NCBI GenBank assembly: GCA_001443005.1
Contig: LEKQ01000001.1
Span: 594,542 to 658,541, forward strand
DNA: 64,000 nt
Reading direction: 5' to 3'
From: a bacterium GBS-1
Lineage (GTDB): Bacteria > Synergistota > GBS-1
The notes below the pieces were generated by a model. That model was not told the origin of the DNA and did not search any database. It saw only the letters and a list, made by a program, of their open reading frames with translations. Within the stretch, counting starts at the first letter, position 1, and every line of letters begins with the position of its first letter. This document shows, piece after piece, positions 349 to 45,652 of the stretch. Made by a program: the position numbers and the translations under genes.

Positions 349-2094
349 TCAACCCCGCTTAAGGATGGCTCCCTGATCAGCCGAAGTGACTGCTTCAGCG
401 TACCGCGCTAAATATCCCCGGGTTACCCTCGGAGCGGGAGGCTTCCAGTTGGCTAGCCTCCTCTTTATCTCCTCTTCGCTCAGATGCAAATCAAGTTTCC
501 TCTCATCGATATTTATAGTTATGAGGTCCCCATCTTGAACGATAGCGATCGGCCCACCTGAAGCTGCCTCAGGAGAGACATGCCCCACACAGGGACCCCT
601 CGTGGATCCAGAAAACCTCCCATCGGTGACTAAAGCCGTGCTATCCCCTAAGCCCATACCGACGAGAACAGACGTAGCGGCAAGCATCTCTCGCATACCC
701 GGTCCCCCCTTAGGTCCCTCATAGCGTATAACGACTACATCTCCCCTCTGAACCTTGCCATCAAGAATGGCTTGAACTGCATTTTCACAGGACTCGAAAA
801 CCTTAGCTGGACCAGTGTGAACCCTCATGGAGGGCGAAACCGCAGTCTGCTTCACAACTGCACCATTGGGAGCCAGACTTCCCCTTAAAATTGCCAAGCT
901 ACCTTCCTCATGAACAGGGTTATCAAGAGAACGAATTACCTCTCTATTACGGTTTTTGGCTTTCTTCAATATATCCCTAAGAGTGCAAAGCATAACGCTC
1001 CTCTCATCTAAATGAAGTAGGGGAGAAAGCTCCTTCATAACAGCAGGAATCCCACCGGCATCATCCAGATCCTTAAGGGTATATGGACCAGAAGGCTTCA
1101 AATCAACCAAGTGCGGCGTAGTCCTACTTACCCTATCGAAGTCATCCAGTGTTATCCTTATGCCTATCTCATGGGCTATAGCGGGGATGTGAAGCAAAGC
1201 GTTGCTTGAACCTCCCACAGCCACAACCACTCGCATGGCATTCTCAAAGGATCTGTCTGTTATTATATCGGAAGGTTTAACACCTCTCTCTATGAGCCTC
1301 ATAACCTGAATCCCCGAAAGCTTGGCTTCCCTAAGCTTTTTAGAATATACAGCGTGAGTTGTCGCACAGCCCGGCAAAGTCAAGCCCAGGCTTTCAGCCA
1401 CACATGACATGGTGTTCGCAGTCCCCATCATGGAACATGAGCCTACAACAGGGCATATGCAATCCTCCATTTCCCTAAACTCCTCTTCTGTCAACAATCC
1501 ACGCCTATAAAGTCCCACAGCCTCCCTTATCTCATAGACAGCTAAGCTTCTACCCTTAAAAACCCCCGGGAGCATCGGTCCACCAGTAACCATGATAGAT
1601 GGAACGTTTATCCTTAACATCGCCATAAGCATACCAGGAACTATCTTATCACAGGCGGCTAAGAAGACCAAGCCATCTAACTGCTCCGCCTGAGCCACGA
1701 GCTCTATGGAATCAGCTATCACCTCTCTACTGGGTAGAACATAACACATTCCCTGATGCCCCTGGGCTATACCATCGCATATGGCGATGGTGTTAAACTC
1801 AAAGGGCACGCCCCCAGCCAACCTTATGCCCTCCTTAACCGCCTCAGCGATCTGGCGAAAATGCTTATGCCCGGGGTGCATCTCATTCCAAGAGTTCACA
1901 ACACCAACGAAAGGACGGTTGAATTCCTCATCGATCAACCCACAAGCTTTAAGAAGGGCACGCATACCAGCCCTATCTATACCCTCCACAACAACTCGAC
2001 TGCGCAATCCCACGGCTTCATTCACCCTCCCTAAAAACAAAGGAATCAGGGCTCCAAGACCGGAATGGTAATCAAGGCATTGGGTACAACCCAA
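349..2094 (-). CDS. IlvD/EDD-family dehydratase (dihydroxy-acid or sugar-acid dehydratase), paralog 1
   Basis: [37 protein letters not shown] and [11 protein letters not shown] motifs. True start is probably near 2025 (GTG), which would remove the overlap with the upstream gene. Confidence 0.85.
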
Positions 2095-15588: not shown

Positions 15589-16479
15589 TCATAGCAAACC
15601 AAGCCTCCTTAAGCCCTCTTTTATCTTTTCCCTTACCTCTTCGCTCGCTGGTCTGAAGGGTTCTCTCGGATACATCTTTATCCCGCGTAGGTTAACCATG
15701 GTATAAGCTCCTACGGTAGTGGTATTAGCGAGCCTCATAAGGTCTCTAACGGCCATCACCCTATTGTGAACCTCTATCACCTTATCCTTAGGGGCACCGC
15801 TCATCACCACATCATAAAGCTCCTTACAAAGCTCTGGAAAAGCGTTACCCAACCCTGGAATAAAGGCTTTGATGCCCAAAGAGGACGCAGGAACAAACAG
15901 AGCCTCGGTTCCTAAAACCACATCGAAGCCTTCTTTTTCTACCTTTCTCTTGAAATCCGATAGGACCATCAAATCGAAGCTACTATCCTTAACACCATGC
16001 ACACCTATATCCGCCAACCTCTTAAGCAAGCCCACGCTAACGGCATACCCGACAGTTTTGGGATTGTTATAAACATAAACAGGCACATTAACTGCATCAA
16101 CGATTCTTTTGAAATAAAATAAGACATCCTCCTCGGCATGATGATAGTAGAAAGGAGGAACCGCTGAAACAGCATCAGCACCTATCTCCTCAGCGTGTTT
16201 AGCGAGCTCAACAGCATCCCTCGTGCTTATGCTTCCCACATGAACAATAACCGGGACCCTCCCCCCGACCTCCTTCACAATTATCTCCGCAACCCTCTTT
16301 CTCTCCTCGAGGCTAAGCAAAGGTCCGCAGCCATAGGTCCCAAGGATGAAAAGGCCATCCACCGTCCCTAAAAGGAAGCTCGTAAAATCCCTCAAAGCTC
16401 CCTCATCTATATCGCCGTTTGCATCGAAGGGAACGATCATCGGCGGAATTACCCCTCTCAACTGGGTGATACCCATCAA
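15589..16479 (-). CDS. DapA/NAL-family class I aldolase or dehydratase (dihydrodipicolinate synthase family; 2-keto-3-deoxy-acid aldolase-like)
   Basis: 296 aa; GVIPPMIVPF..DGLFILGTYGCGPLLSLEER layout typical of DHDPS/KDG-aldolase family. Confidence 0.8.
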   Translation of the reverse strand: MMGITQLRGVIPPMIVPFDANGDIDEGALRDFTSFLLGTVDGLFILGTYGCGPLLSLEERKRVAEIIVKEVGGRVPVIVHVGSISTRDAVELAKHAEEIGADAVSAVPPFYYHHAEEDVLFYFKRIVDAVNVPVYVYNNPKTVGYAVSVGLLKRLADIGVHGVKDSSFDLMVLSDFKRKVEKEGFDVVLGTEALFVPASSLGIKAFIPGLGNAFPELCKELYDVVMSGAPKDKVIEVHNRVMAVRDLMRLANTTTVGAYTMVNLRGIKMYPREPFRPASEEVREKIKEGLRRLGLL

Positions 16480-18028: not shown

Positions 18029-18043
18029 CTCAAGCTTTAAGAA

Positions 18044-20300: not shown

Positions 20301-20783
20301 TTAGGGCAACCTCACTCCAAGTAAATGTCCAAATGAGTACATCAAGCTCAAACTCACCAAAAGAGCGATCCCGATCGCGACGTGTAGCTTGACACTTTTA
20401 AAGTAAAGATAGGACCCAACTAGATAGAGAAAAGTCGCCAAAGTATAGGGTATCTTCCCCAAAAGAGCAACATAGGCGACCGTTAAAGCTATAAAGACGA
20501 CGAGCCTTTGTGTCTTGAGTCTCTCCTCCCTGCTTCCCTCATTTCTCCCCTTTGACTCCGAGAGGCTCCAACCTTTAAGGTTTCTTTTAAAGATAAACAA
20601 GAGGTAAAACATAAGCGCAGCTGAAAGAACCATAAGAATTGCCGATAAAACTGCGGGGGTAAGACCTGGGGAGTCATGAGGGTCTCCAGTAGGCATCTTT
20701 AGGGATTCAAACAAGCCATAAGCACCGATCAGGAAAACGAAAAGGGCAATCGCAAACTCCCACCACCATCTCTTCCTATCCAT
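20301..20783 (-). CDS. tctB: Tripartite tricarboxylate transporter small subunit TctB (copy 1)
   Basis: 160 aa, four hydrophobic segments, sits between tctC and tctA. Confidence 0.6.
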   Translation of the reverse strand: MDRKRWWWEFAIALFVFLIGAYGLFESLKMPTGDPHDSPGLTPAVLSAILMVLSAALMFYLLFIFKRNLKGWSLSESKGRNEGSREERLKTQRLVVFIALTVAYVALLGKIPYTLATFLYLVGSYLYFKSVKLHVAIGIALLVSLSLMYSFGHLLGVRLP

Positions 20784-20813
20784 CCTGAACTAAATCGCCT
20801 CCCCCTTAAAACA

Positions 20814-20845
20814 GTGCATGGCAGGAGGAAGAACCTGCCATGCAC
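20814..20845 (-). promoter_or_regulatory. Intercistronic stem-loop between tctC and tctB (copy 1): perfect 12-bp inverted repeat, 8-nt loop
   Basis: GTGCATGGCAGG-aggaagaa-CCTGCCATGCAC read directly from the sequence; no downstream U-tract. Confidence 0.5.
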
Positions 20846-20869
20846 CCATCTCTATCTAAGGGTCCAAAC

Positions 20870-21877
20870 TTACTCCGGCTTAGGAATCTTGAAATCCTCA
20901 GGAGATTTCTTCGCAAGCTTCAACTCATGTAAGAGCCAGCTAACCAAAGATGTCTCTCTCTTAGCGTACTCCTCAGACTTCTGCCTATCATAGCCAAGAT
21001 AAACCATGGCCTGCTTCTGTACGAACTCCTTGAACTTAGGAGACTGAACGGCCTTAGCGTATGCCTTATCTATCGCATCTACAACCTCTTGAGGAACATC
21101 CCTAGGAACTGCTATGCCCCACCAACCACCGAAAGGTAGATATTTCTTAATATCAGGAGCCCACTTCGCCACAGTGGGAACCTTACCTACGCCCTCTATC
21201 TCAATATCCTCGTCATTGAACGTCGCAAGGATCCTAAGCTGGCCACCCTTTATCAAATCTATGGCCTCCATTAAGCCTGGAATTCCCGCTTTCGTCTCCC
21301 CTGCCACAGCCGCGGCAGCAGCCGCACGACCGCTGGGATAAACCACTATCTTAAAGTCCCCTCCAACAGATTTCTTAAGCATCTCCAAAGCTATATGCCA
21401 CCCGTTGGCTATACCAGAGTTAGCAAGGGTTAAGTCCTTCCCCATCTCCTTCATAGCCTTAATGAAATCATCCATGGTCTTTATGGGAGAATCGGGCTTA
21501 ACGCATATGGTCGCTACACCAGCAGCAGCGATCCACATATGAAAGTCCTTATAAGAGAAGGGACCAAGGTCCATCACCTGATACATCCTTATGTTATCTG
21601 AGAGTCCTAACCAAATATAACCATCATGAGGCTGACCCATGACGTAAGCTGTCGCAACAGCTCCAGTGGCCCCAGGCATATTTATGACATTAATAGGAAC
21701 CCCTAGGATCTGCTGCATCTCTGCCGCCAATGCTCTATTGACCTGGTCTGTTGCTCCACCCGCACCGAACTGAACTATAACGGTTATAGGTCTCGTTGGA
21801 TAGGCAGCCCATCCCATACCTGCGAAGACACCCACGAACAAGCCCAACACCGCCAACATAACAAGAGCCTTCTTCAT
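20870..21877 (-). CDS. tctC: Tripartite tricarboxylate transporter substrate-binding protein TctC (Bug family; copy 1)
   Basis: Signal peptide followed by AAYPTRPITVIVQFGAGGATD Bug-family motif. Confidence 0.85.
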   Translation of the reverse strand: MKKALVMLAVLGLFVGVFAGMGWAAYPTRPITVIVQFGAGGATDQVNRALAAEMQQILGVPINVINMPGATGAVATAYVMGQPHDGYIWLGLSDNIRMYQVMDLGPFSYKDFHMWIAAAGVATICVKPDSPIKTMDDFIKAMKEMGKDLTLANSGIANGWHIALEMLKKSVGGDFKIVVYPSGRAAAAAAVAGETKAGIPGLMEAIDLIKGGQLRILATFNDEDIEIEGVGKVPTVAKWAPDIKKYLPFGGWWGIAVPRDVPQEVVDAIDKAYAKAVQSPKFKEFVQKQAMVYLGYDRQKSEEYAKRETSLVSWLLHELKLAKKSPEDFKIPKPE

Positions 21878-21901
21878 CTTTCTTCCCCCCTTTAGATTAA
21901 T

Positions 21902-21919
21902 TTCTTAAAGCTTTAAGAA
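21902..21919. promoter_or_regulatory. Perfect 18-bp palindrome TTCTTAAAGCTTTAAGAA just upstream of the tctC (copy 1) Shine-Dalgarno; candidate operator
   Basis: Read directly; near-identical palindrome lies in the same position upstream of tctC copy 2. Confidence 0.4.
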
Positions 21920-21954
21920 CCTCTTCCTTTTCACATCACCTCCCTCTACGGCTT

Positions 21955-23109
21955 TTACATGGCAGATCTGCATATCTGGATCAGATCTTCCAAGGTAGGA
22001 GTTCTCGGATTAATGGGTATCCCAACGTTACTCATCGCCTCACGACATATATCTTCAATGGCATCCTCTTTGACGCCTACCTCTCTTAGCCCTGCCGGTA
22101 TACCCACATCTCTACACAAAGCCTTTACCGCCTCAACCGCCCTACGTGCAGCCTGAAGCTCCGTAAGACCGGAAACGCTCTCTCCCAACGCTTCAGCTAT
22201 CTTAGCAAACTTAGAAAGGTTGCCAATGAGATTAAACTCCATACCATAGGGTAATAGGATAGCGTTTATCACACCATGAGGCACGTCGAAGTACCCACCC
22301 ATAACAGCTGTGATAGCGTGAATAACGCCCAAGCGCGTATTTGCGAAAGCCAAGGCTGCCATCGTGCTTCCTAAGAGCATGTTATAGCGAGCTTCAATAT
22401 TATCCCCCTTAGCATAGGCAGCCCTCAGATACTTTCCAATAAGATAGATAGCGTGATAGGCAAGCGACTCCGATATAGGCTCAGTTACAACGTTCGTGAA
22501 GGACTCTATAGCGTGAGTTAGAGCATCTAAACCAGTAGCAGCGGTCACGCTTGGCGGCATACTCAAGGTTAGAAGGGGGTCGCAAACCGCAATGTGAGGA
22601 GCGATCTTAGGATTACCTATGCCCATCTTAACTTTCTTCTTGGTATCCTTTATCACCGTCACCCAAGTTATCTCGCTACCTGTGCCAGCCGTAGTAGGAA
22701 CGGCAATGAGAGGAAGTATCCTGTTCTTCGGAGGGTTCTTCCAAAAGTAGGCTATCTCCCCCTCGTTAGTTAAAAGTAGACCGATCGCCTTAGCGGTGTC
22801 TATCGAGCTTCCTCCCCCAATCGCCAATAGGAGATCACACCCAAACTCCCGAGCAACTTTAACTCCCTCCTCGACTATCTCAACCGTCGGATTAGGCTCA
22901 ACTTTAGAGAAAACCTCAGTTCTAAAGCCAGCAATATCCAACTTGGCCTTTATGCCATTTACGATGTTCGTGCACATCAATCCCGGATCCGTAACTATTA
23001 AGACGCTCTTTCCGCCCAGTTCGTTAACCCTGTCTACTATTTTTTCGGCCTCTCCTATCCCAAAATACAACTTAGTCGGAATCTGCCAAACGAAGGGCTT
23101 AACAAACAT
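21955..23109 (-). CDS. Iron-containing alcohol dehydrogenase (Fe-ADH family)
   Basis: 384 aa; GGGSSIDTAKAIG motif and Fe-ADH layout. Confidence 0.85.
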   Translation of the reverse strand: MFVKPFVWQIPTKLYFGIGEAEKIVDRVNELGGKSVLIVTDPGLMCTNIVNGIKAKLDIAGFRTEVFSKVEPNPTVEIVEEGVKVAREFGCDLLLAIGGGSSIDTAKAIGLLLTNEGEIAYFWKNPPKNRILPLIAVPTTAGTGSEITWVTVIKDTKKKVKMGIGNPKIAPHIAVCDPLLTLSMPPSVTAATGLDALTHAIESFTNVVTEPISESLAYHAIYLIGKYLRAAYAKGDNIEARYNMLLGSTMAALAFANTRLGVIHAITAVMGGYFDVPHGVINAILLPYGMEFNLIGNLSKFAKIAEALGESVSGLTELQAARRAVEAVKALCRDVGIPAGLREVGVKEDAIEDICREAMSNVGIPINPRTPTLEDLIQICRSAM

Positions 23110-23325
23110 GCTATCCCCCCTCTATACTTTATTATTGTGATAATATCATCCATCCAAACAAATCTATCCTTATCCGCCAACGGAACAACATTCGCTATTT
23201 CTAAATGATATCTTAACATAAGCACCCGACAGCGTCAAGCCATGTTCGTATACCCAGTATGCTTGGATTAATGGTAATACCTCAACTATTTCGCATATAG
23301 GAGAATCTTTTAGATTCTCTCTATC

Positions 23326-24795
23326 TTAGTCCTTTAATTTACGCACCACCTTCCAAATAGATGGTCCTAAAAGGGTTAAAACTATAAGAGAAAACAAGAT
23401 TAAAGATATGGGACGGGTTAGGAAAGGGATAATGCTACCACCTGACTTTATAAGCCCTATACGGAGATTGTCCTCGATCATCCTACCAAGGATTAGAGCT
23501 AAAACCATTGGAGCAAGAGGCATGTTTATTTTCTCCATAACGTAGCCGAGTAAGCCAAACAGCGCCATTAGCCATATATCGAAGACGCTGTTTCTTATGG
23601 CGTAGGAGCCTACCATGGAAAACAGAACCACAGCACTCATAACTACACCTGCTCTAAGGCTAACCAAGCGAGAAAAGGCCTTTATCCCCAGCCACCCAAC
23701 CGGTAAAAGCATTATCTGCACCAGCAGGGCTACAGCGAAAATCTGATATACCAAATCCTTAGATTGAGCGAAGATGAGCGGTCCAGGCTTCAAGCCATAC
23801 ATCAGCATAGCGCCTAGGACTATCGCAGTTATAGAATCGCCAGGTATCCCCAGTGCCAGTGCAGGGATCCAAGTTCCACCTATAGCAGCATTATTCGCAC
23901 TGGTTGGAGCTATAACGCCACGGGGGCTACCGGAACCTATCTCATTACCACTAAGGCTTTTTTCCGCTCCATAGGCAACCCATGCAGCGATGTCCGCCCC
24001 CGCTCCAGGAAGAGCACCTATGAAAGTCCCTATCAAAGAGCTCCTTATTATAATGAACTTATTGCGATACATAAGCTTTAAAGCCTCAAGCACATCCAAC
24101 TTCCCATTGATTTTAACGCTTGGTAAGTCCAAGCTCTCCCTAAAGGACAATCTCTTCAATACCTCGGAAATTCCAAAAAGTCCTATCATAGCTGGGATAA
24201 AGCTAACACCATCCATCAGCTCCGTGATCCCAAAGGTAAACCTGGGATATCCCGTGGTGACATCTATACCTATGGTAGATATGAGAAGCCCAAACAAGGC
24301 TGAAAGAAGCCCCTTGATGGTATTACCTCTACTTAAAACGGCAGCCATGCTTAAACCAAAGACCCCCAACCAGAAATACTCGAAGTGCGTGAACTTCAAG
24401 GCTACCTCAGCTAACGGGGGAGCAGTGAAGATCAATATCAAAACCCCTATCAATCCTCCAAGAGCAGAACAGAAGAGATCCAAAGTTAAGGCTAAAGCTC
24501 CTTTACCCTTCTTATTCATCTCAAAGCCATCTAAAACCGCTGCCCCAGAGGCTGGCGTACCCGGAATCCTTAAGAAGGTCGCGGGAATATCGCCTGCAAA
24601 TATGGCGGTGAAGGAAACACCTATAACCATAGCCAAACCCGTTAGGGGCTCCATGTAATAGGTCAATGGTATTATGAGAGCTACGGCCATCGTAGCCGTA
24701 AGGCCAGGCATAGCGCCCACGAAAACGCCAAAGGCCATTGAAAGCAAAAGCGGAAAAAGAACCTTTAAGGAAAGGATGGATAAAAGATAAGACAT
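23326..24795 (-). CDS. tctA: Tripartite tricarboxylate transporter large permease TctA (copy 2)
   Basis: 489 aa; GAMPGLTATMAVALI motif; paralog of copy 1. Confidence 0.85.
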   Translation of the reverse strand: MSYLLSILSLKVLFPLLLSMAFGVFVGAMPGLTATMAVALIIPLTYYMEPLTGLAMVIGVSFTAIFAGDIPATFLRIPGTPASGAAVLDGFEMNKKGKGALALTLDLFCSALGGLIGVLILIFTAPPLAEVALKFTHFEYFWLGVFGLSMAAVLSRGNTIKGLLSALFGLLISTIGIDVTTGYPRFTFGITELMDGVSFIPAMIGLFGISEVLKRLSFRESLDLPSVKINGKLDVLEALKLMYRNKFIIIRSSLIGTFIGALPGAGADIAAWVAYGAEKSLSGNEIGSGSPRGVIAPTSANNAAIGGTWIPALALGIPGDSITAIVLGAMLMYGLKPGPLIFAQSKDLVYQIFAVALLVQIMLLPVGWLGIKAFSRLVSLRAGVVMSAVVLFSMVGSYAIRNSVFDIWLMALFGLLGYVMEKINMPLAPMVLALILGRMIEDNLRIGLIKSGGSIIPFLTRPISLILFSLIVLTLLGPSIWKVVRKLKD

Positions 24796-24802
24796 CTACA
24801 CT

Positions 24803-25294
24803 CTACCCCCTTAAGAGTGAAAATATAACTCCCTCAGGTAAGGGTAGCTTAAATATAACCTTGAAAATCCAATGGATTAACAAAGCCAAGACTACAGAAT
24901 AAACTAGAGATGAAAACCACCTAACTCTCATAAATCGCATTAGGAAAACTCCCAAGAGCGTTATACCAATCACGCTTCCGAAAATCTTCAGAACCGGGTA
25001 AAAGAGAAACCCCACACCTATGATAATTACGAAGCTCAAGCTTTTATATAAGCTGACGCCTTTAAATAGCGATGATCTCAATTCCTCCCTCGCTTTAAAT
25101 AGAGAGGTCAAACCAGATACAAAAAAGTAAAAACCAAAGATCAAGATCAAAAAAGCTAAGAGATCCGGGAAAAAGCTCGGTCCAGGCAACTTTTCCCCTC
25201 TTACCGTAAACTTCGGGAAAAACCTGGAATGGTAAAAAACGAAGCCTGATAAAGCGAAACAGCTCAAACTCAATATAAGGTCACTCCACCCCAT
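24803..25294 (-). CDS. tctB: Tripartite tricarboxylate transporter small subunit TctB (copy 2)
   Basis: 163 aa hydrophobic protein in the tctCBA position. Confidence 0.6.
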   Translation of the reverse strand: MGWSDLILSLSCFALSGFVFYHSRFFPKFTVRGEKLPGPSFFPDLLAFLILIFGFYFFVSGLTSLFKAREELRSSLFKGVSLYKSLSFVIIIGVGFLFYPVLKIFGSVIGITLLGVFLMRFMRVRWFSSLVYSVVLALLIHWIFKVIFKLPLPEGVIFSLLRG

Positions 25295-25320
25295 TTAGCC
25301 ACAATCCCCCTTTAAAGGCG

Positions 25321-25350
25321 GGGCAAGCTCGTGGGAACGAGCTTGCCCCA
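25321..25350 (-). promoter_or_regulatory. Intercistronic stem-loop between tctC and tctB (copy 2): perfect 12-bp inverted repeat, 6-nt loop
   Basis: GGGGCAAGCTCG-tgggaa-CGAGCTTGCCCC; same position and architecture as copy 1. Confidence 0.5.
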
Positions 25351-25362
25351 AAGAGAATACCT

Positions 25363-26337
25363 TTACTTCTTAAGATATCCGCCTAGCTCGAGAACCGTCT
25401 TCCAAGCTTTATCCTGCTCCTCAACGAATTTCCTGAACTCCTCTCCCCTTCTTACCTTTATACCAAAGCCATTGGTTTCCATGAACTTCTTGAAAGCTTC
25501 AGAGTTAGCTATCTCAATAATGGCATCCTCGAGCTTCTTCTTTATCTCAGCAGGGGTTCCTTTAGGAACACCCACACCCCTCCACGTACCAGCGCTCCAG
25601 TTAATACCGAGCTCCTTTAAGGTCGGTACATCTGGGAATGCAGGAAGCCTCTCATCGGCCATAACAGCGAGAGCTCGAGCCTGACCGCTCTTTATATAAG
25701 GAGCGGCTTCCGCCAACGAACAGGTAACCACGTGGACATGCCCACCTAAAAGCTCGGTCAAAGCTTGAGCAGCGCCCGTGGTAGACGGAATCCACTTAAC
25801 GGAATCCACAGGCAAACCAGCAGCGTGAAGCATACCTATCCTAGCTAAATCCCATATCCCACCCGCTGCGACGCCGGAGAAAAGAAGCTTACCTGGATTA
25901 GCCTTTATATCGTCCAGTAGCTCCTTGAGATTCTTCCATGGGGCATCGGCCTTGACCGTTACTCCTGCAGCATCCTCGTTAACCTGAGCTATATAGTCGA
26001 AAGCCTCATAGGTTAGGTCCGTGAGGCCCATCCAGTGCATTGTGGCTAACTCCAATGTCACGATGGTTATGGTGTATCCGTCTGGGGGTGCATAAGCACC
26101 AGCGGCGTGCCCCACCGCTCCACCGCCACCCGTTTTGTTAACCACAGTGAAGGGCTGACCAAACTTCTTAGAAAGCTCATCTGCCAAAAATCGAGCAAGC
26201 CTGTCGGTGCCCCCACCAGCACCCCAAGGACAGATAACCGTAACCGCCTTCTCTGGATAGGCCGCCCACGCGCTTAAGGTAAAGACCCACGTAAACCCCA
26301 TAACCGCCAAAACTACCACCCATAAAAGCTTCTTCAT
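25363..26337 (-). CDS. tctC: Tripartite tricarboxylate transporter substrate-binding protein TctC (Bug family; copy 2)
   Basis: Signal peptide followed by AAYPEKAVTVICPWGAGGGTD Bug-family motif. Confidence 0.85.
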   Translation of the reverse strand: MKKLLWVVVLAVMGFTWVFTLSAWAAYPEKAVTVICPWGAGGGTDRLARFLADELSKKFGQPFTVVNKTGGGGAVGHAAGAYAPPDGYTITIVTLELATMHWMGLTDLTYEAFDYIAQVNEDAAGVTVKADAPWKNLKELLDDIKANPGKLLFSGVAAGGIWDLARIGMLHAAGLPVDSVKWIPSTTGAAQALTELLGGHVHVVTCSLAEAAPYIKSGQARALAVMADERLPAFPDVPTLKELGINWSAGTWRGVGVPKGTPAEIKKKLEDAIIEIANSEAFKKFMETNGFGIKVRRGEEFRKFVEEQDKAWKTVLELGGYLKK

Positions 26338-26350
26338 TTTGAAACCCCCT

Positions 26351-26366
26351 TTCTTAAATTTAAGAA
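26351..26366. promoter_or_regulatory. Perfect 16-bp palindrome TTCTTAAATTTAAGAA abutting the tctC (copy 2) Shine-Dalgarno; candidate operator
   Basis: Read directly; shares the TTCTTAAA / TTTAAGAA half-sites with 21902-21919. Confidence 0.4.
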
Positions 26367-26523
26367 GCTTTGCTTAAAAAGCAAATATTACCAGTTTCAC
26401 CTCCTTCCTTATGTTAAACTCTCTGTTTAAAGTATAGCAAAAGAAGAACCATCTTTCGAGATCTCCAAAACCTTTTCGGGAAAAGATGTGCTGAAAAAAT
26501 CTCTTAAATTTTTTAGTCTATTC

Positions 26524-26997
26524 TTAAAAGCACCTTTTTCTGAGATTAAACCTTCTTAAAATGGGCAGAAACATGCCTCCAACGAGAGCTAACGCCCCAA
26601 GAGCGCCGGGCCTGGAGGAGATTTCACAACCGCCGCACCACCAGTCAAAGTCAACCCTTATGCTACGAGGCCCCCACCATGTAGAATGACCGTATTCATC
26701 CTCAACCTTAACGCATACATCGTACCACCCCTCGTACCACACCCTATACCATAGAGTGTCGCTCCACTCCACCTCAACGCCATTCACATACCATGTATAG
26801 TAAATGTAATCACCATCAGGATCATAGGCTTCAACGCGCCCCTTTATGATCGCATATTCATCACACCAATCGTATTCGTAATAATCCACATCCAACCAAA
26901 CGTTCGTTATTATAGGAGGCGAGTTCTGCCCCAAAGCATATCCAGATATACATAAGAGCAAGACAAGGGAAACAAGCGATATCTTAAGCCCCTTCAA
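26524..26997 (-). CDS. Small secreted W/Y-rich PKD-like domain protein with a C-terminal hydrophobic/basic tail
   Basis: N-terminal signal peptide (MKGLKISLVSLVLLLCISGYALG); DPDGDYIYYTWYVNG PKD-like core; tail CGGCEISSRPGALGALALVGGMFLPILRRFNLRKRCF; 4-nt overlap with upstream gene. Confidence 0.5.
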   Translation of the reverse strand: MKGLKISLVSLVLLLCISGYALGQNSPPIITNVWLDVDYYEYDWCDEYAIIKGRVEAYDPDGDYIYYTWYVNGVEVEWSDTLWYRVWYEGWYDVCVKVEDEYGHSTWWGPRSIRVDFDWWCGGCEISSRPGALGALALVGGMFLPILRRFNLRKRCF

Positions 26998-28232
26998 ATG
27001 AAACTTCCTCCCTTAGCGCGTTCCATCAAATCAAGGAGAACTTCAACCACCTTTTGAGCAAACTCAGGATCATTTATGTTGTTATCGAGCTCGTAAACTG
27101 GTATCCCAGGTCTAAGATTAGCCTTTATCGAATCGAAGCAAGCCCTATCAGCCTCAGGATCCCAGAAGGCTTGACCAGGACTGTCAAGCATGGAAACACC
27201 CTTTAGCGGTATAAGCACGGCCACCGGCCCCTTGCTTTCGTTCGCCGCCCTAGCTATCCACTCCCCTATGGCTTTGTTTTCTTCAACGTTCGTCCTAACC
27301 AAGGTGACATTAGGATTCCACTCGTATATCTTTCTGCCCCTATACTTCTCCGGAACCGTATCTTTCGCCCAGAAATTGATCATATCGACACAACCCGGAA
27401 CTAAAACGGCAGGGATACCTCTTCTTGCAGCAGCAAAGAGCCTATCCTTCCCCGCCGATAGAACCCCTCCACCTATCTCATCAGCTAACTCCGTAGTCGT
27501 TATATCAGCCACAGCTGAAACCAAGCCCTGATCAATGAGCATCTCCATGGTTCTCCCACCGGTCCCAGTAGCGTGAAACACCAGTATCTCAAAGCGATCG
27601 CCCAAAAGCTCTTTAACCTTCTCGACGCACGGTGTCGTGTTCCCAAACATGCTTATAACTATAACTGGCTTCTCAGGCTCCTTAAGCATCTCCTCATAGG
27701 CACCATGCTCAAGCATCCCCGCGAGCGCCCCCACGGCGTTCTTATAAATCGCCCTGCTAATCCTATTTAAGCCAGCCACATCAACTATTGAGGGAAACAT
27801 CACTATATCCTTAATCCCAACATATCGAGATACATCTCCACCAGCAACCGTAGACACCATCACCTTAGGAATACCTATGGGCAAAGCTTGCATGGCCGTT
27901 GTGGCTATTATGGTCCCAGCGCTTCCTCCCATACCAAGTATGCCATGAAGATTCCCTTCATCATATAACCTCCTAACTACCTCCTTAAGCCCCTTGGTCA
28001 TCGTATCCATCGCTAAGCTCTTATCCTTTTTCGCCTGGAGCTCCTCTATGCTCACTCCCCCCGCCTTTGCCACCTCTGCCCTCGTTATATCTGGTTCGAA
28101 GAAGGGCTTCCCCATCACACCAAAATCAACCACAATAACCTCAAAACCAGAGCTCTTGAGCAGATCCCTAACGTAGGCAAAATCCTGCCCTTTGGTATCT
28201 AAGGCACCGACTAAAACAACCTTCTTAGTCAT
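26994..28232 (-). CDS. Tm-1-like / UPF0261-family protein
   Basis: 412 aa; N-terminal MTKKVVLVGALDTKG and overall resemblance to UPF0261; recognised from memory of the family. Confidence 0.6.
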   Translation of the reverse strand: MTKKVVLVGALDTKGQDFAYVRDLLKSSGFEVIVVDFGVMGKPFFEPDITRAEVAKAGGVSIEELQAKKDKSLAMDTMTKGLKEVVRRLYDEGNLHGILGMGGSAGTIIATTAMQALPIGIPKVMVSTVAGGDVSRYVGIKDIVMFPSIVDVAGLNRISRAIYKNAVGALAGMLEHGAYEEMLKEPEKPVIVISMFGNTTPCVEKVKELLGDRFEILVFHATGTGGRTMEMLIDQGLVSAVADITTTELADEIGGGVLSAGKDRLFAAARRGIPAVLVPGCVDMINFWAKDTVPEKYRGRKIYEWNPNVTLVRTNVEENKAIGEWIARAANESKGPVAVLIPLKGVSMLDSPGQAFWDPEADRACFDSIKANLRPGIPVYELDNNINDPEFAQKVVEVLLDLMERAKGGSFI

Positions 28233-33332: not shown

Positions 33333-33378
33333 TTGACTTTTAGAGCGCTTTAGATTATATTGATTTTAAAAGCGCTTT
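33333..33378 (+). promoter_or_regulatory. Candidate sigma-70-type promoter of the TAXI-TRAP operon with two AAAGCGCTTT-type palindromic boxes
   Basis: -35 TTGACT (33333-33338), 17-bp spacer, -10 TATATT (33356-33361); box AGAGCGCTTT at 33342-33351 and perfect palindrome AAAGCGCTTT at 33369-33378. Confidence 0.4.
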
Positions 33379-33392
33379 AAGGGGGGATAAGC

Positions 33393-37858: not shown

Positions 37859-38566
37859 TCATTCTTCCTCATCACTGAACTTATATCCTATGTTCCTTAC
37901 CGTCTGAATATATTTATGATCATAATCCCCAAGTTTATTTCTAAGCCTACTTATATGAGTATCAACCGTTCTACTACCACCATAATAGTCATAGCCCCAA
38001 ACTTTGTTAAGAAGCTCTTCTCTCGTGAAAACTCTACCCCTATTGGTGATAAGGAGCTTCAAAAGCTCGTACTCCTTAAAGGTTAAGGGGATAAACCTAC
38101 CCCTTAAAATCACCTTATACCTTTCCATGTCTATCATAAGGTCACCGCATCTTATCACCCTTTCATCCTTAAAAGATGAGGATCCCTTCCTCAACAACCT
38201 TCTCACCCTAAGAAATAACTCCTCAGACGATATCGGCTTAACAAGGAAATCCTTAAAAAGATTATCCTCCGCAAGAAAGGCAAAACTCCATTCCTTCTCA
38301 GAAACAAGGGCAACTATAGGAATATCTTTTGATGAAAGAAAGTTTAAGACATCACTCAAAGTGTACTCCATATCGGACAGGGATTCAAAGAGGTCTAAAT
38401 CAACGAGGAATAGGTCAAAAAAGTGTCCTTCCCTCTCAAGCTCATCAAGAAACTCGTCCGGATCCTCAAAAATCATGAGGGCAATACCCTTCCTTGAAAA
38501 CTCCTTTAAAGCATTCCTAAGATCCTCCTTCTTCGCTAAAAGAGCCAGTCTCACAAAAACTACCAC
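37859..38566 (-). CDS. OmpR-family winged-helix response regulator with an atypical receiver domain
   Basis: C-terminal OmpR/PhoB-type DNA-binding domain (TREELLNKVWGYDYYGGSRTVDTHISRLRNKL); receiver retains LVDLDL and KP but lacks the usual N-terminal acidic pair. Confidence 0.7.
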   Translation of the reverse strand: MVVFVRLALLAKKEDLRNALKEFSRKGIALMIFEDPDEFLDELEREGHFFDLFLVDLDLFESLSDMEYTLSDVLNFLSSKDIPIVALVSEKEWSFAFLAEDNLFKDFLVKPISSEELFLRVRRLLRKGSSSFKDERVIRCGDLMIDMERYKVILRGRFIPLTFKEYELLKLLITNRGRVFTREELLNKVWGYDYYGGSRTVDTHISRLRNKLGDYDHKYIQTVRNIGYKFSDEEE

Positions 38567-40097: not shown

Positions 40098-41570
40098 GTG
40101 TGGATTAGGCTTAGAACTGGAATCAGAACAAGGATCATTCTCTTAACCCTCTTTATGGTTTGCGTTCTCCTTGTTTCGGGGTGGCTAAATGTGAAGCTAT
40201 TTAGCAGGGCAACGGAGACGATGATGTCCCTTTCCGAAGAGAGGAGTACACTAGACTACATTAGAACTCTAGAGGAAATTTTAGAAAGACTAAGGGTAGA
40301 TTTCGAGATATTAGCTTTAATTAGGGATGGTTGGCTACCCCCCACACTTAAAACGCTCCAGGAAGTCGAAGCTTATGTAAGAATTATCGAAGAGAAGGAA
40401 GCCATTGAAGAAAGCTTAAGGGAGGCTTTCCATGAGCTTAAAGGCCACATAACGGGTTTAACCCCTCCCTTTGATGATAAAAAGTTCAGGGAAGCTAACA
40501 AGCTACTAAAACAATTAAGAGAATCCGTAGAGGAATTATCACACAAAGTAGAAGCCAAGATTATAAAGATAGAAGCGAACTTTAGAACATTCCTTGAGAG
40601 CTCAAGAAGACTATCTTGGAACATTCTAATAGTAGCTATGATATTTACTACCATTTTAGCTTACCTTATAGTAAGGGAACATATGAAAACTAGCCTCGCT
40701 ATAGTTAACCATCTTAAGAACATAACCAGTCAGATAAAGAGTAACTCCTTCCCTGTGATTCCCCCTCCGTTGAAGGCAATGCTACCCGAAGGGGAAAAGA
40801 TAGCCGAATACATAAATGAGCTTGTTAACCAACACAATATAAGCCTTAAAAGGATTAGGGAACTAAGCGAAGCCAAAACCGCCTTCCTGGCGATAGCGTC
40901 TCACGAAACTAAAACACCCTTAACCTCGATAATCGGCTACTCGGAGATACTCCTAGAGGAAGATATCCCTCCTAAGCTTAAGGAGAAACTCACCATCATA
41001 AGATCTCAAGCTCAGACTCTACTTAAAACGATGGAAAGGATGCTATCCTATTCAAGGCTCGGCTCCGACATCAACCTATCTAAAGTAAATTTAAGGGAAC
41101 TCCTAGAAAAGGTTGGAATGGAATTTGTGGAAAAAGCGAGAGAAAAAGGAATAGATTTCAAGATTAATATACTAAGTAATAATACGACCATAGAAACTGA
41201 CCCCTATAGGCTCGAGATAGCCTTAAGGGAGATCTTAGATAATGCCTTTAAGTTTGCCCAAAATGGTTACATAGAATTAACGTTGAAAATTATCAAAGAT
41301 CGTGCTATCATAGCTGTAAAAGATAGCGGTCCCGGAATAGAAGAAGACAAAAAAGATATGATATTTGAACTCTTCTACCAAGGAGAGGGCTTCTTAACTA
41401 GAAAGCACAGCGGCTTAGGTTTGGGTTTACCCTTAGCTTTAAGAGCTATTAACGGTATAGGAAAGATCACCTTTAAAAGCCAAAAAGGGAAGGGTAATAC
41501 CTTCTATATAATCCTCTACGGAGGGGGGATCTTAAGTTGGTCAAGCTCACGAGAAAACTCGAAACCATAG
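40098..41570 (+). CDS. Sensor histidine kinase (two TM segments flanking an extracytoplasmic region; HisKA + HATPase_c)
   Basis: H-box ASHETKTPLTSIIGYSEIL; C-terminal G-box GLGLGLPLA; hydrophobic segments at aa about 10-30 and about 160-185. Confidence 0.8.
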   Translation: MWIRLRTGIRTRIILLTLFMVCVLLVSGWLNVKLFSRATETMMSLSEERSTLDYIRTLEEILERLRVDFEILALIRDGWLPPTLKTLQEVEAYVRIIEEKEAIEESLREAFHELKGHITGLTPPFDDKKFREANKLLKQLRESVEELSHKVEAKIIKIEANFRTFLESSRRLSWNILIVAMIFTTILAYLIVREHMKTSLAIVNHLKNITSQIKSNSFPVIPPPLKAMLPEGEKIAEYINELVNQHNISLKRIRELSEAKTAFLAIASHETKTPLTSIIGYSEILLEEDIPPKLKEKLTIIRSQAQTLLKTMERMLSYSRLGSDINLSKVNLRELLEKVGMEFVEKAREKGIDFKINILSNNTTIETDPYRLEIALREILDNAFKFAQNGYIELTLKIIKDRAIIAVKDSGPGIEEDKKDMIFELFYQGEGFLTRKHSGLGLGLPLALRAINGIGKITFKSQKGKGNTFYIILYGGGILSWSSSRENSKP

Positions 41571-45560: not shown

Positions 45561-45587
45561 GCTCCTTAAACCTCCCAAGACAATTAT

Positions 45588-45618
45588 AGGGGACTTCAAC
45601 CCGGGGTTGAAGTCCCCT
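45588..45618 (-). terminator. 31-bp near-perfect palindrome / hairpin downstream of hppA and upstream of dnaG
   Basis: AGGGGACTTCAACC-cgg-GGTTGAAGTCCCCT, 14-bp stem; no clear U-tract, so terminator function is uncertain. Confidence 0.4.
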
Positions 45619-45652
45619 ATGGGTTTAAGCTAAAGTTAGATGATCTTCAAAA

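Follow-up and report, generated by a model that had tools for sequence, protein, structure and literature searches.

Identical perfect palindromes in the leaders of two tctC genes of bacterium GBS-1: possible operators of a common regulator

Two loci for tripartite tricarboxylate transporters (TTT) lie close together in a 64-kb stretch of the genome of bacterium GBS-1 (Synergistota; contig LEKQ01000001.1, positions 594,542 to 658,541; hereafter, the window), and both carry the same perfect palindrome shortly 5' of the Shine-Dalgarno (SD) sequence of tctC, the gene for the substrate-binding protein. What such an element might be doing there is the question addressed here. Pfam searches found the TctC/TctB/TctA set twice, and nearly all genes of the window, as well as the transcripts containing the palindromes, are on the minus strand. 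The coordinates and the symmetry of both palindromes, as given by an initial annotation of this DNA, were confirmed. Palindrome 1, TTCTTAAAGCTTTAAGAA, is made up of TTCTTAAAG/CTTTAAGAA and is located in the 77-nt spacer between a gene for an iron-dependent alcohol dehydrogenase (ADH) and tctC1. Palindrome 2, TTCTTAAATTTAAGAA, is made up of TTCTTAAA/TTTAAGAA and is located in the tctC2 leader, inside a 186-nt intergenic region. The 8-nt arms are identical between the two, with the half-sites abutting at palindrome 2 and parted by GC at palindrome 1, a difference of 2 bp (centers read from the sequence, AAGCTT or AAATTT). On the minus strand, site 1 reads ...TTTAAGAA-ATTAATCTAAA-GGGGGG-AAGAAAG-ATG and site 2 reads ...TTTAAGAA-A-GGGGG-TTTCAAA-ATG. 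The proximity to the tctC SDs described initially was thus borne out, palindrome 1 ending 11 nt from the G-run SD and 24 nt from the ATG and palindrome 2 ending 1 and 13 nt from them, respectively.

The palindromes are real, non-random, and operator-like, and the probability of their joint occurrence by chance is negligible. The pattern TTCTTAAA-N0-2-TTTAAGAA had two copies in 64 kb, both in tctC leaders, versus none in 100 dinucleotide shuffles, and a search tolerating up to 3 mismatches added no relevant copy in the window. After both sites had been masked, the window was used to train an order-5 Markov model, which gave an expectation of ca. 2e-4 copies for each of the palindrome sequences. 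In composition shuffles of each intergenic region, palindromes with arms of at least 8 nt appeared with P = 3e-4 in the ADH-tctC1 spacer and P = 0.017 in the region upstream of tctC2, and shuffles within 40 nt still gave P = 0.002. Among the simulated palindrome pairs, 0 of 1,680 had a common arm. The window has a G+C content of 46%, which does not fit the description of this genome as AT-rich in the initial annotation, and its coding strand is strongly purine-loaded. Given that TctC1 and TctC2 are 32% identical and that their leaders are alike in the palindrome alone, the identity of the palindromes is no relic of a duplication and would instead reflect recognition by the same factor. As for a dispersed repeat of the REP or MITE type, which would be expected in numerous copies throughout a genome, mostly between convergent genes or 3' of genes, we counted 2 copies in 64 kb.

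The reading that we favor, tentatively and with somewhat less than even confidence, is that a single sequence-specific regulator, encoded outside the window and probably dimeric, recognizes these palindromes as operator-like sites on the DNA; it would act as a roadblock downstream of the promoters and co-repress both TTT systems together with the sugar-acid genes. Judging from the sequence, the regulator would bind in the transcribed leader just 5' of each tctC and block the elongating or just-initiated RNA polymerase (a roadblock or a late-initiation block), so that both uptake systems would be repressed together. At site 1, the block would also repress the genes found 3' of tctC1, namely, tctB1, tctA1, and those for an SDR, an FGGY kinase, a DHDPS-like aldolase, and an ILVD/EDD dehydratase, while the ADH gene, upstream of site 1, would stay expressed. 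Protein binding, DNA rather than RNA as the target, and repression as the effect are what we infer. A perfect dyad of 16 to 18 bp with identical 8-nt arms and AT richness is the usual layout of operators bound by helix-turn-helix dimers. Operators are expected to be dyads of ca. 14 to 20 bp repeated at co-regulated genes, and the two perfect palindromes, with identical arms and confined to the tctC leaders, agree with that expectation.

A promoter scan placed the tctCBA2 promoter so that palindrome 2 occupies about +59 to +74 of the tctC2 transcript. The promoter layout, CTYGAMRGAT-N14-TATWCT, is repeated in orthologous loci with 90 to 91% identity (CTTGAAAGAT-N14-TATTCT in L321-326 and CTTGACGGAT-N14-TATTCT in L001), a correspondence read by eye, as a MAFFT alignment of the three upstream regions misplaced the promoters. 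A nearer alternative, TGgTAATAT (ca. 26393-26385), has no -35 hexamer and is not conserved, and we regard it as a weak possibility only. For the ADH-tctC1 operon, the sole candidate is the promoter-like site ahead of the ADH gene; the scan reported none in the 77-nt spacer. This, together with the order ADH-tctC1 being kept in three orthologous loci, indicates that palindrome 1 is intra-operonic. The features of both loci, and others referred to below, are collected in Table 1.

Table 1. Coordinates of the palindromes and of other features in the window (nt from its first position)
Feature	Position	Strand	Remarks
Palindrome 1	21902-21919		Perfect, 18 bp (9+9)
Palindrome 2	26351-26366		Perfect, 16 bp (8+8)
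tctC1 G-run SD, TAAAGGGGGG	21885..21890	-	7 nt, then ATG at 21877
tctC2 G-run SD	26345..26349	-	7 nt, then ATG at 26337
tctC1, substrate-binding protein of TTT transporter 1	20870..21877	-	Pfam
tctC2, substrate-binding protein of TTT transporter 2	25363..26337	-	Pfam
tctCBA2 promoter, TCGAAA-17-TGcTATACT	26431..26459	-	Promoter scan; layout repeated in 90-91% orthologues
Promoter-like site ahead of ADH gene, TTGACG-17-TAAGAT with TG	23210..23238	-	Promoter scan
ADH stop codon	21955-21957		
Pseudo-SD, tctC1 leader	21933-21943		Right after the ADH stop codon
Pseudo-SD, tctC2 leader	26397-26404		
Inverted repeat 3' of tctC1	20814-20845		GC-rich, 12-bp arms
Inverted repeat 3' of tctC2	25320-25349		GC-rich, 13-bp arms
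Inverted repeat between H+-pyrophosphatase gene and dnaG	45586-45620		GC-rich, 17-bp arms
Hairpin between tctA2 and ADH promoter-like site	23301-23319		
TTCTTAAAGCTT copy, SDR/FGGY spacer	18032-18043	-	15-nt spacer; abuts FGGY SD
TTCTTAAAGCTT copy, ILVD/EDD-like gene	1944-1955	-	
AGCGCTTTA-core near-palindromes	33339-33354, 33365-33382		Two copies
TAXI-TRAP binding-protein gene	33393	+	
OmpR-type regulator gene	37859-38566	-	
Histidine kinase gene	40098-41570		
157-aa open reading frame (ORF)	26524-26997	-	
TTTAAGA(A/G) copies	26560-26554, 26528-26522, 26508-26502	-	5' of palindrome 2

Operators situated downstream of promoters are well known, among them the CcpA cre sites, the CodY and PurR roadblocks, and lac O2. 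They resemble the tct sites in being palindromes of 14 to 21 bp in the transcribed leader, or between the genes, of operons for uptake or catabolism of carbon sources; they are bound by dimers, halt RNA polymerase instead of affecting promoter recognition, and allow one factor to control several operons. In contrast to these systems, the tct sites have a spacing that varies by 2 bp, number just two, and lack conservation in relatives. By analogy, a cre-type roadblock operator would be the nearest functional counterpart. A CcpA-type cre site itself was rejected, since the consensus, WTGNAANCGNWNNCW with a central CG, is unmatched and the arms are not of the TG...CA kind. No LacI-, CodY-, or PurR-type gene was seen.

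Several observations weigh against an operator. The spacing of the half-sites, expected to be constant, is off by 2 bp; this turns one half-site relative to the other by about 70° around the helix, more than most rigid dimers would accept. Neither palindrome overlaps a promoter, site 2 lying ca. 60 nt downstream of a conserved one and site 1 in an intercistronic spacer devoid of them. Under a roadblock model, the common position next to the SD would be a coincidence, and just two sites are known. No regulator gene was found in the array, as had been remarked initially; the window holds just an OmpR-type regulator, an HD-GYP-like protein, and a histidine kinase, all ca. 11 kb off. Finally, conservation in orthologues, expected of operators, fails at 87 to 93% protein identity.

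The initial annotation had named lack of conservation upstream of orthologous operons as evidence against its proposal, and the palindrome was indeed absent there. In the tctC1 orthologues of L081 (93% protein identity), L082 (90%), and L079 (87%), an ADH-tctC1 spacer of 73 to 80 nt is kept, with its 5' end (GGAGGTGAT, right after the ADH stop) and its 3' SD conserved and a different center; none of the three has the palindrome. It is also absent from the tctC2 orthologues of L001 (90%) and L321-326 (91%), although these keep the promoter and, close to the 5' end, a G-rich pseudo-SD. None of 72 TctC2-orthologue loci in a genome collection that included Pseudothermotoga and Synergistota contained it (in Pseudothermotoga, the tctC2 orthologue is directly behind an aldolase gene, with no spacer), and no copy with up to 2 mismatches was found outside coding sequence in 1.27 Mb of related loci. 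In a metagenome scan with the pattern TTCTTAAA-N0-4-TTTAAGAA-N0-12-GGRGG, we retrieved 113 loci, of which only L247 and L260 were from this organism; these are the same two sites, and the scan contained no other SD-adjacent copy from it. The rest were unrelated coding sequences or terminators, the latter recognized by CCCCC and GGGGG flanks that are absent at the tctC sites. As to the frequency of the motif, on which the initial annotation had also made its proposal depend, the window has only the two tctC leader sites. In AT-rich DNA generally, the motif in its generic form is frequent, with at least 120 matches in viral contigs, so that its specificity holds only within this genome. The palindrome is lineage-specific, and co-regulation of both transporters is a reasonable hypothesis for one lineage.

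Overall, the common site for a dimeric regulator put forward in the initial annotation is retained as the best single reading because the alternative of an RNA hairpin lacks predicted stability at the growth temperature (see below), with spacing, distance to the promoters, and conservation counting against it. A variant of the tctC2 leader is found in L326 (ca. 840-855; also in L321-L325), where the 91% orthologue has a different perfect palindrome of 16 bp, CTTTTTATATAAAAAG, right after the -10 hexamer. This suggests that regulators of the tct cassette were swapped between lineages. A partial second copy of CTTTTTATATAAAAAG lies 20 nt downstream.

With regard to candidate regulators, members of the OmpR family normally bind direct repeats. 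The OmpR-type gene of the window lies between glnA and the HD-GYP-like gene; its product has a Trans_reg_C domain and an N-terminal half with no receiver-domain match at E ≤ 0.001. No regulator was found in the 2 to 3 kb beyond the window ends either. In Salmonella and Pseudomonas, TctD/TctE control tctCBA through a specific DNA motif ahead of the operon; TctD, a response regulator of the OmpR type, is encoded beside the transporter genes, and its bipartite motif lies in the promoter region (PMC4513871). We rejected a TctD box here, since no two-component system lies beside either tctCBA and what is found, downstream of the promoter, is an inverted repeat. A different arrangement was seen at the TAXI-TRAP binding-protein gene, which is preceded by two copies of a near-palindrome with a AGCGCTTTA core, one in the spacer of a TTGACT-17-TATATT promoter and the other extending from the start site to the SD. 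These two copies are likely an operator pair of another repressor, in which case SD-adjacent operators do occur in this genome.

The lineage specificity also bears on whether the palindromes have any dedicated function at all. On a neutral view, all that would be required of the region before an SD is to be A/U-rich and unstructured, which makes for sequence prone to palindromes, and those of GBS-1 could have been perfected by template-switch replication errors, their identity coming from a short templated copy between leaders 4.4 kb apart. We consider this unlikely. It would be consistent with the absence of the palindrome from every relative examined and with the presence at the same place of other small AT palindromes, such as TTTAATTAAA in L081 and TTTAA-aggc-TTAAA in L079. 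In addition, the right arm overlaps words of an extended SD, TTAAGG(G/A)GG, and the left 12 nt of palindrome 1, TTCTTAAAGCTT, form an oligomer that is common in this DNA and also found in coding sequence (Leu-Leu-Lys-Ala) and in the SDR/FGGY spacer. The difference of 2 bp in spacing and the instability of the hairpin as RNA suit neither of the simple functional models, and the perfect symmetry suggests a recent origin over long maintenance. Opposed to a neutral origin are the composition shuffles, which still leave P = 3e-4 to 0.017 per site, and the lack of a common arm in any of the simulated pairs. A copying event would have to move just 16 nt, with no flanking identity, and both copies are unchanged in six 99.9%-identical population contigs, a test that is almost powerless. 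The extended SD and the common TTCTTAAAGCTT raise the background, not enough for two identical perfect palindromes.

The extended ribosome-binding consensus, T(T/A)AAGG(G/A)GG, was found at about -25 to -5 in ca. 12 of 54 genes (e.g., those at 15589, 20301, 23326, 24803, 28248, and 33393), which implies that pairing with the 16S rRNA tail extends past its usual CCUCC core.

Given that both sites are transcribed, the stability of the palindromes as RNA at the growth temperature had to be considered. An identical TctC2 protein is encoded on contigs of metagenomes sampled at 77 °C in Great Boiling Spring, an origin of this uncultured organism, and of related assemblies. Proteins at least 90% identical carry the label Synergistota bacterium or "bacterium 42_11," and relatives at this level from Synergistota metagenome-assembled genomes are MCS7232837.1, MCS7233356.1, and KUK13927.1. 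With an IVYWREL fraction of 0.449, the proteins of the window put the predicted growth optimum near 86 °C. Folded as RNA, the palindromes have a predicted energy of -2 to -3.7 kcal/mol at 37 °C, which shrinks to about -1 at 60 °C and to 0 at 77 °C, while the GC-rich inverted repeats 3' of tctC1, 3' of tctC2, and at the pyrophosphatase gene keep -9 to -13 kcal/mol at 77 °C (-9 and -13 for the first two, respectively). This contrast favors a DNA site over an RNA hairpin, and the model makes a self-folding RNA element unlikely. The hairpins 3' of tctC1 and tctC2 lie directly between tctC and tctB, the classic layout for raising the binding-protein mRNA over that of the membrane subunits. The third inverted repeat overlaps the first in-frame start (TTG) of dnaG in the mechanical ORF list and is probably the pyrophosphatase terminator.

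A cis element acting at the RNA level, either as a leader hairpin or clamped by a dimeric RNA-binding protein, would tune translation, mark a site of endonuclease processing, or protect the 5' end, and the binding-protein mRNA would be expressed separately from its neighbors. We rate this as unlikely. The position of both sites in the transcripts, 1 and 11 nt 5' of the SD, would suit it, as would identical arms with a variable center, expected of a stem with a free loop. Repeats at this place in relatives could also be read in its favor: L082 has a related imperfect inverted repeat, TTCTTGAAG-N6-CTTAAAGAA, abutting the SD, and the two other tctC1 orthologues have the short AT palindromes mentioned above. 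However, a single pair of the L082 repeat is altered on both sides and has become a G-A mismatch, so the change is not compensatory. The strong hairpins 3' of both tctC genes, together with a conserved pseudo-SD, give these messages the look of being tuned at the RNA level. Against this stand the predicted energies at 60 and 77 °C, given that the real hairpins of the organism are long and GC-rich, and the variable distance to the SD. The stem pairs only with itself and leaves the SD outside, in disagreement with an SD-sequestering hairpin or an RNA thermometer. No larger fold common to both leaders was predicted, and Rfam 15 gave no match in the window at the gathering score and, in 20500-27200, only a chance-level rydB (E = 2.2) among matches up to E = 5.

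An intrinsic terminator or attenuator was rejected, as the palindromes did not appear in the scan and their stems are A-U with one G-C pair, rather than G+C-rich and followed by a U tract. Known 5' stem-loop stabilizers and intercistronic processing hairpins include the ompA 5' hairpin and the processing site of cggR-gapA. The likeness to these lies in the combination of a leader inverted repeat, at a highly expressed gene within an operon, with a strong hairpin 3' of that gene; the difference is that theirs are stable under growth conditions and the tct palindromes are not at 77 °C.

Every tctC1 and tctC2 leader examined (the two of the window and those of L079, L081, L082, L001, and L321-326) has a strong pseudo-SD, either GGAGGTGAT or a G-run with TGG behind it, that lies 55 to 80 nt 5' of the real SD and lacks a usable start codon. 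We take it to resemble the STAB-SD mRNA stabilizer of Bacillus or a ribosome standby site. A leader peptide was rejected, since the short ORFs starting from a GTG within the pseudo-SD of every leader run for 2 to 9 codons and have no sequence in common.

The proximity to the SD could also be explained by an A/U-rich translational enhancer, in which the U-rich left arm and the UUUAAGAA right arm would recruit ribosomal protein S1 or extend the pairing with the 16S rRNA tail, yielding more binding protein, and palindromy would be incidental. This seems to us improbable. A literature search showed that UUUAAGAA followed by an SD is the arrangement of the phage T7 gene 10/pET leader (CTTTAAGAAGGAGA); in this leader, TTAACTTTAAGAAGGAGA, the element TTTAAGAA directly precedes the SD as at site 2, although the leader is not palindromic and the likeness, a lead, is to the right arm alone. 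Apart from the pET primers, the search for the half-sites returned just an unrelated Caldicellulosiruptor XylR site. Furthermore, AAGAAAGG is complementary to a typical 16S 3' tail, and in such transporters it is normally the binding-protein gene whose expression is highest. However, an enhancer would leave both the perfect symmetry and the 16-nt identity unexplained, 11 nt separate the element from the real SD at site 1, and most other well-expressed genes of the window do without it.

Even less probable, to the point of being remote, is a target for a trans-acting small RNA that would base-pair with one of the arms, close to where ribosomes bind on each tctC message, along the lines of the control of binding-protein genes by GcvB and AbcR. 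A 16-nt sequence common to the surroundings of the ribosome-binding sites of two binding-protein mRNAs would fit such a target, and so would the left-arm-only copy, TTCTTAAAGCTT, directly next to the SD of the operon's FGGY kinase gene. However, an AU-rich duplex of 8 to 16 bp would be as unstable at ca. 80 °C as the hairpin, pairing needs no palindrome, the Rfam search revealed no candidate small RNA gene, and the 12-mer is also found in coding sequence, so that the third copy may be due to chance. Regarded as a third site in its own right, the FGGY copy was rejected: 13 nt, TTCTTAAAGCTTG, are common to the spacer and coding copies, and the order-5 expectation is 0.17 per window.

Returning to the operator reading, a more specific scenario, which we consider improbable, is that a host factor in this hyperthermophilic lineage has taken control of two horizontally acquired TTT modules through the identical perfect palindromes in their leaders. 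Such a factor could be a DNA-binding regulator flexible enough to accommodate half-site spacings that differ by 2 bp, providing an intra-operon roadblock at ca. 80 °C, or a dimeric protein that clamps an A-U hairpin unable to fold alone at this temperature, thereby controlling translation or processing of the binding-protein messages. As operators, the palindromes would define a small regulon linking two tricarboxylate-type uptake systems with a sugar-acid catabolic operon, and, since orthologous modules elsewhere have no such site, they would illustrate the way in which a host brings transport modules of recent acquisition under its control. To our knowledge, no regulator-site pair has been described for this host, an uncultured deep-branching thermophile. 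The sites also have a practical value as a 16- to 18-bp bait for DNA-affinity capture from hot-spring enrichments. If they turned out to be functionless, they would be a caution that perfect common palindromes can arise in A/U-rich ribosome-binding regions. As they stand, the palindromes are a putative member of the general class of palindromic operators and belong to no named regulon.

The minus-strand order of the region starts with a PEP-hydrolase-like gene, a UPF0261 gene, a 157-aa secreted Trp/Tyr-rich ORF, and the 186-nt intergenic region and continues with tctC2, tctB2, tctA2, a hairpin, the promoter-like site, the ADH gene, the 77-nt spacer, and tctC1. The 157-aa ORF overlaps the UPF0261 gene by 4 nt, and its product comprises a signal peptide, a body rich in Trp, Tyr, and Asp, and, at the C terminus, a hydrophobic anchor with a basic tail; the ORF had no Pfam match and just two distant homologue clusters among 5.8 billion protein clusters. 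Within this part of the window, 5' of palindrome 2, we found three more direct copies of TTTAAGA(A/G), so that 4 of the 15 minus-strand copies of TTTAAGA in the window fall inside 203 nt. A role of this cluster as auxiliary half-sites was rejected, since two of the copies are the Ile-Leu-Arg-Arg and Phe-stop codons of the 157-aa ORF and codon usage explains much of it.

In two relatives, L331 (8001-8828) and L332 (both ca. 72% nucleotide identity, same flanking core genes), the 157-aa ORF is followed within 4 nt by a 2-phosphosulfolactate-phosphatase-like gene, which in GBS-1 is found at the left end of the window, at positions below 343. According to this arrangement, ca. 349-26523 of the window (26 kb) is a lineage-specific block, either inserted here or lost there. 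The block comprises both tct loci and the sugar-acid, oxidoreductase (POR and AFOR), and ACS genes.

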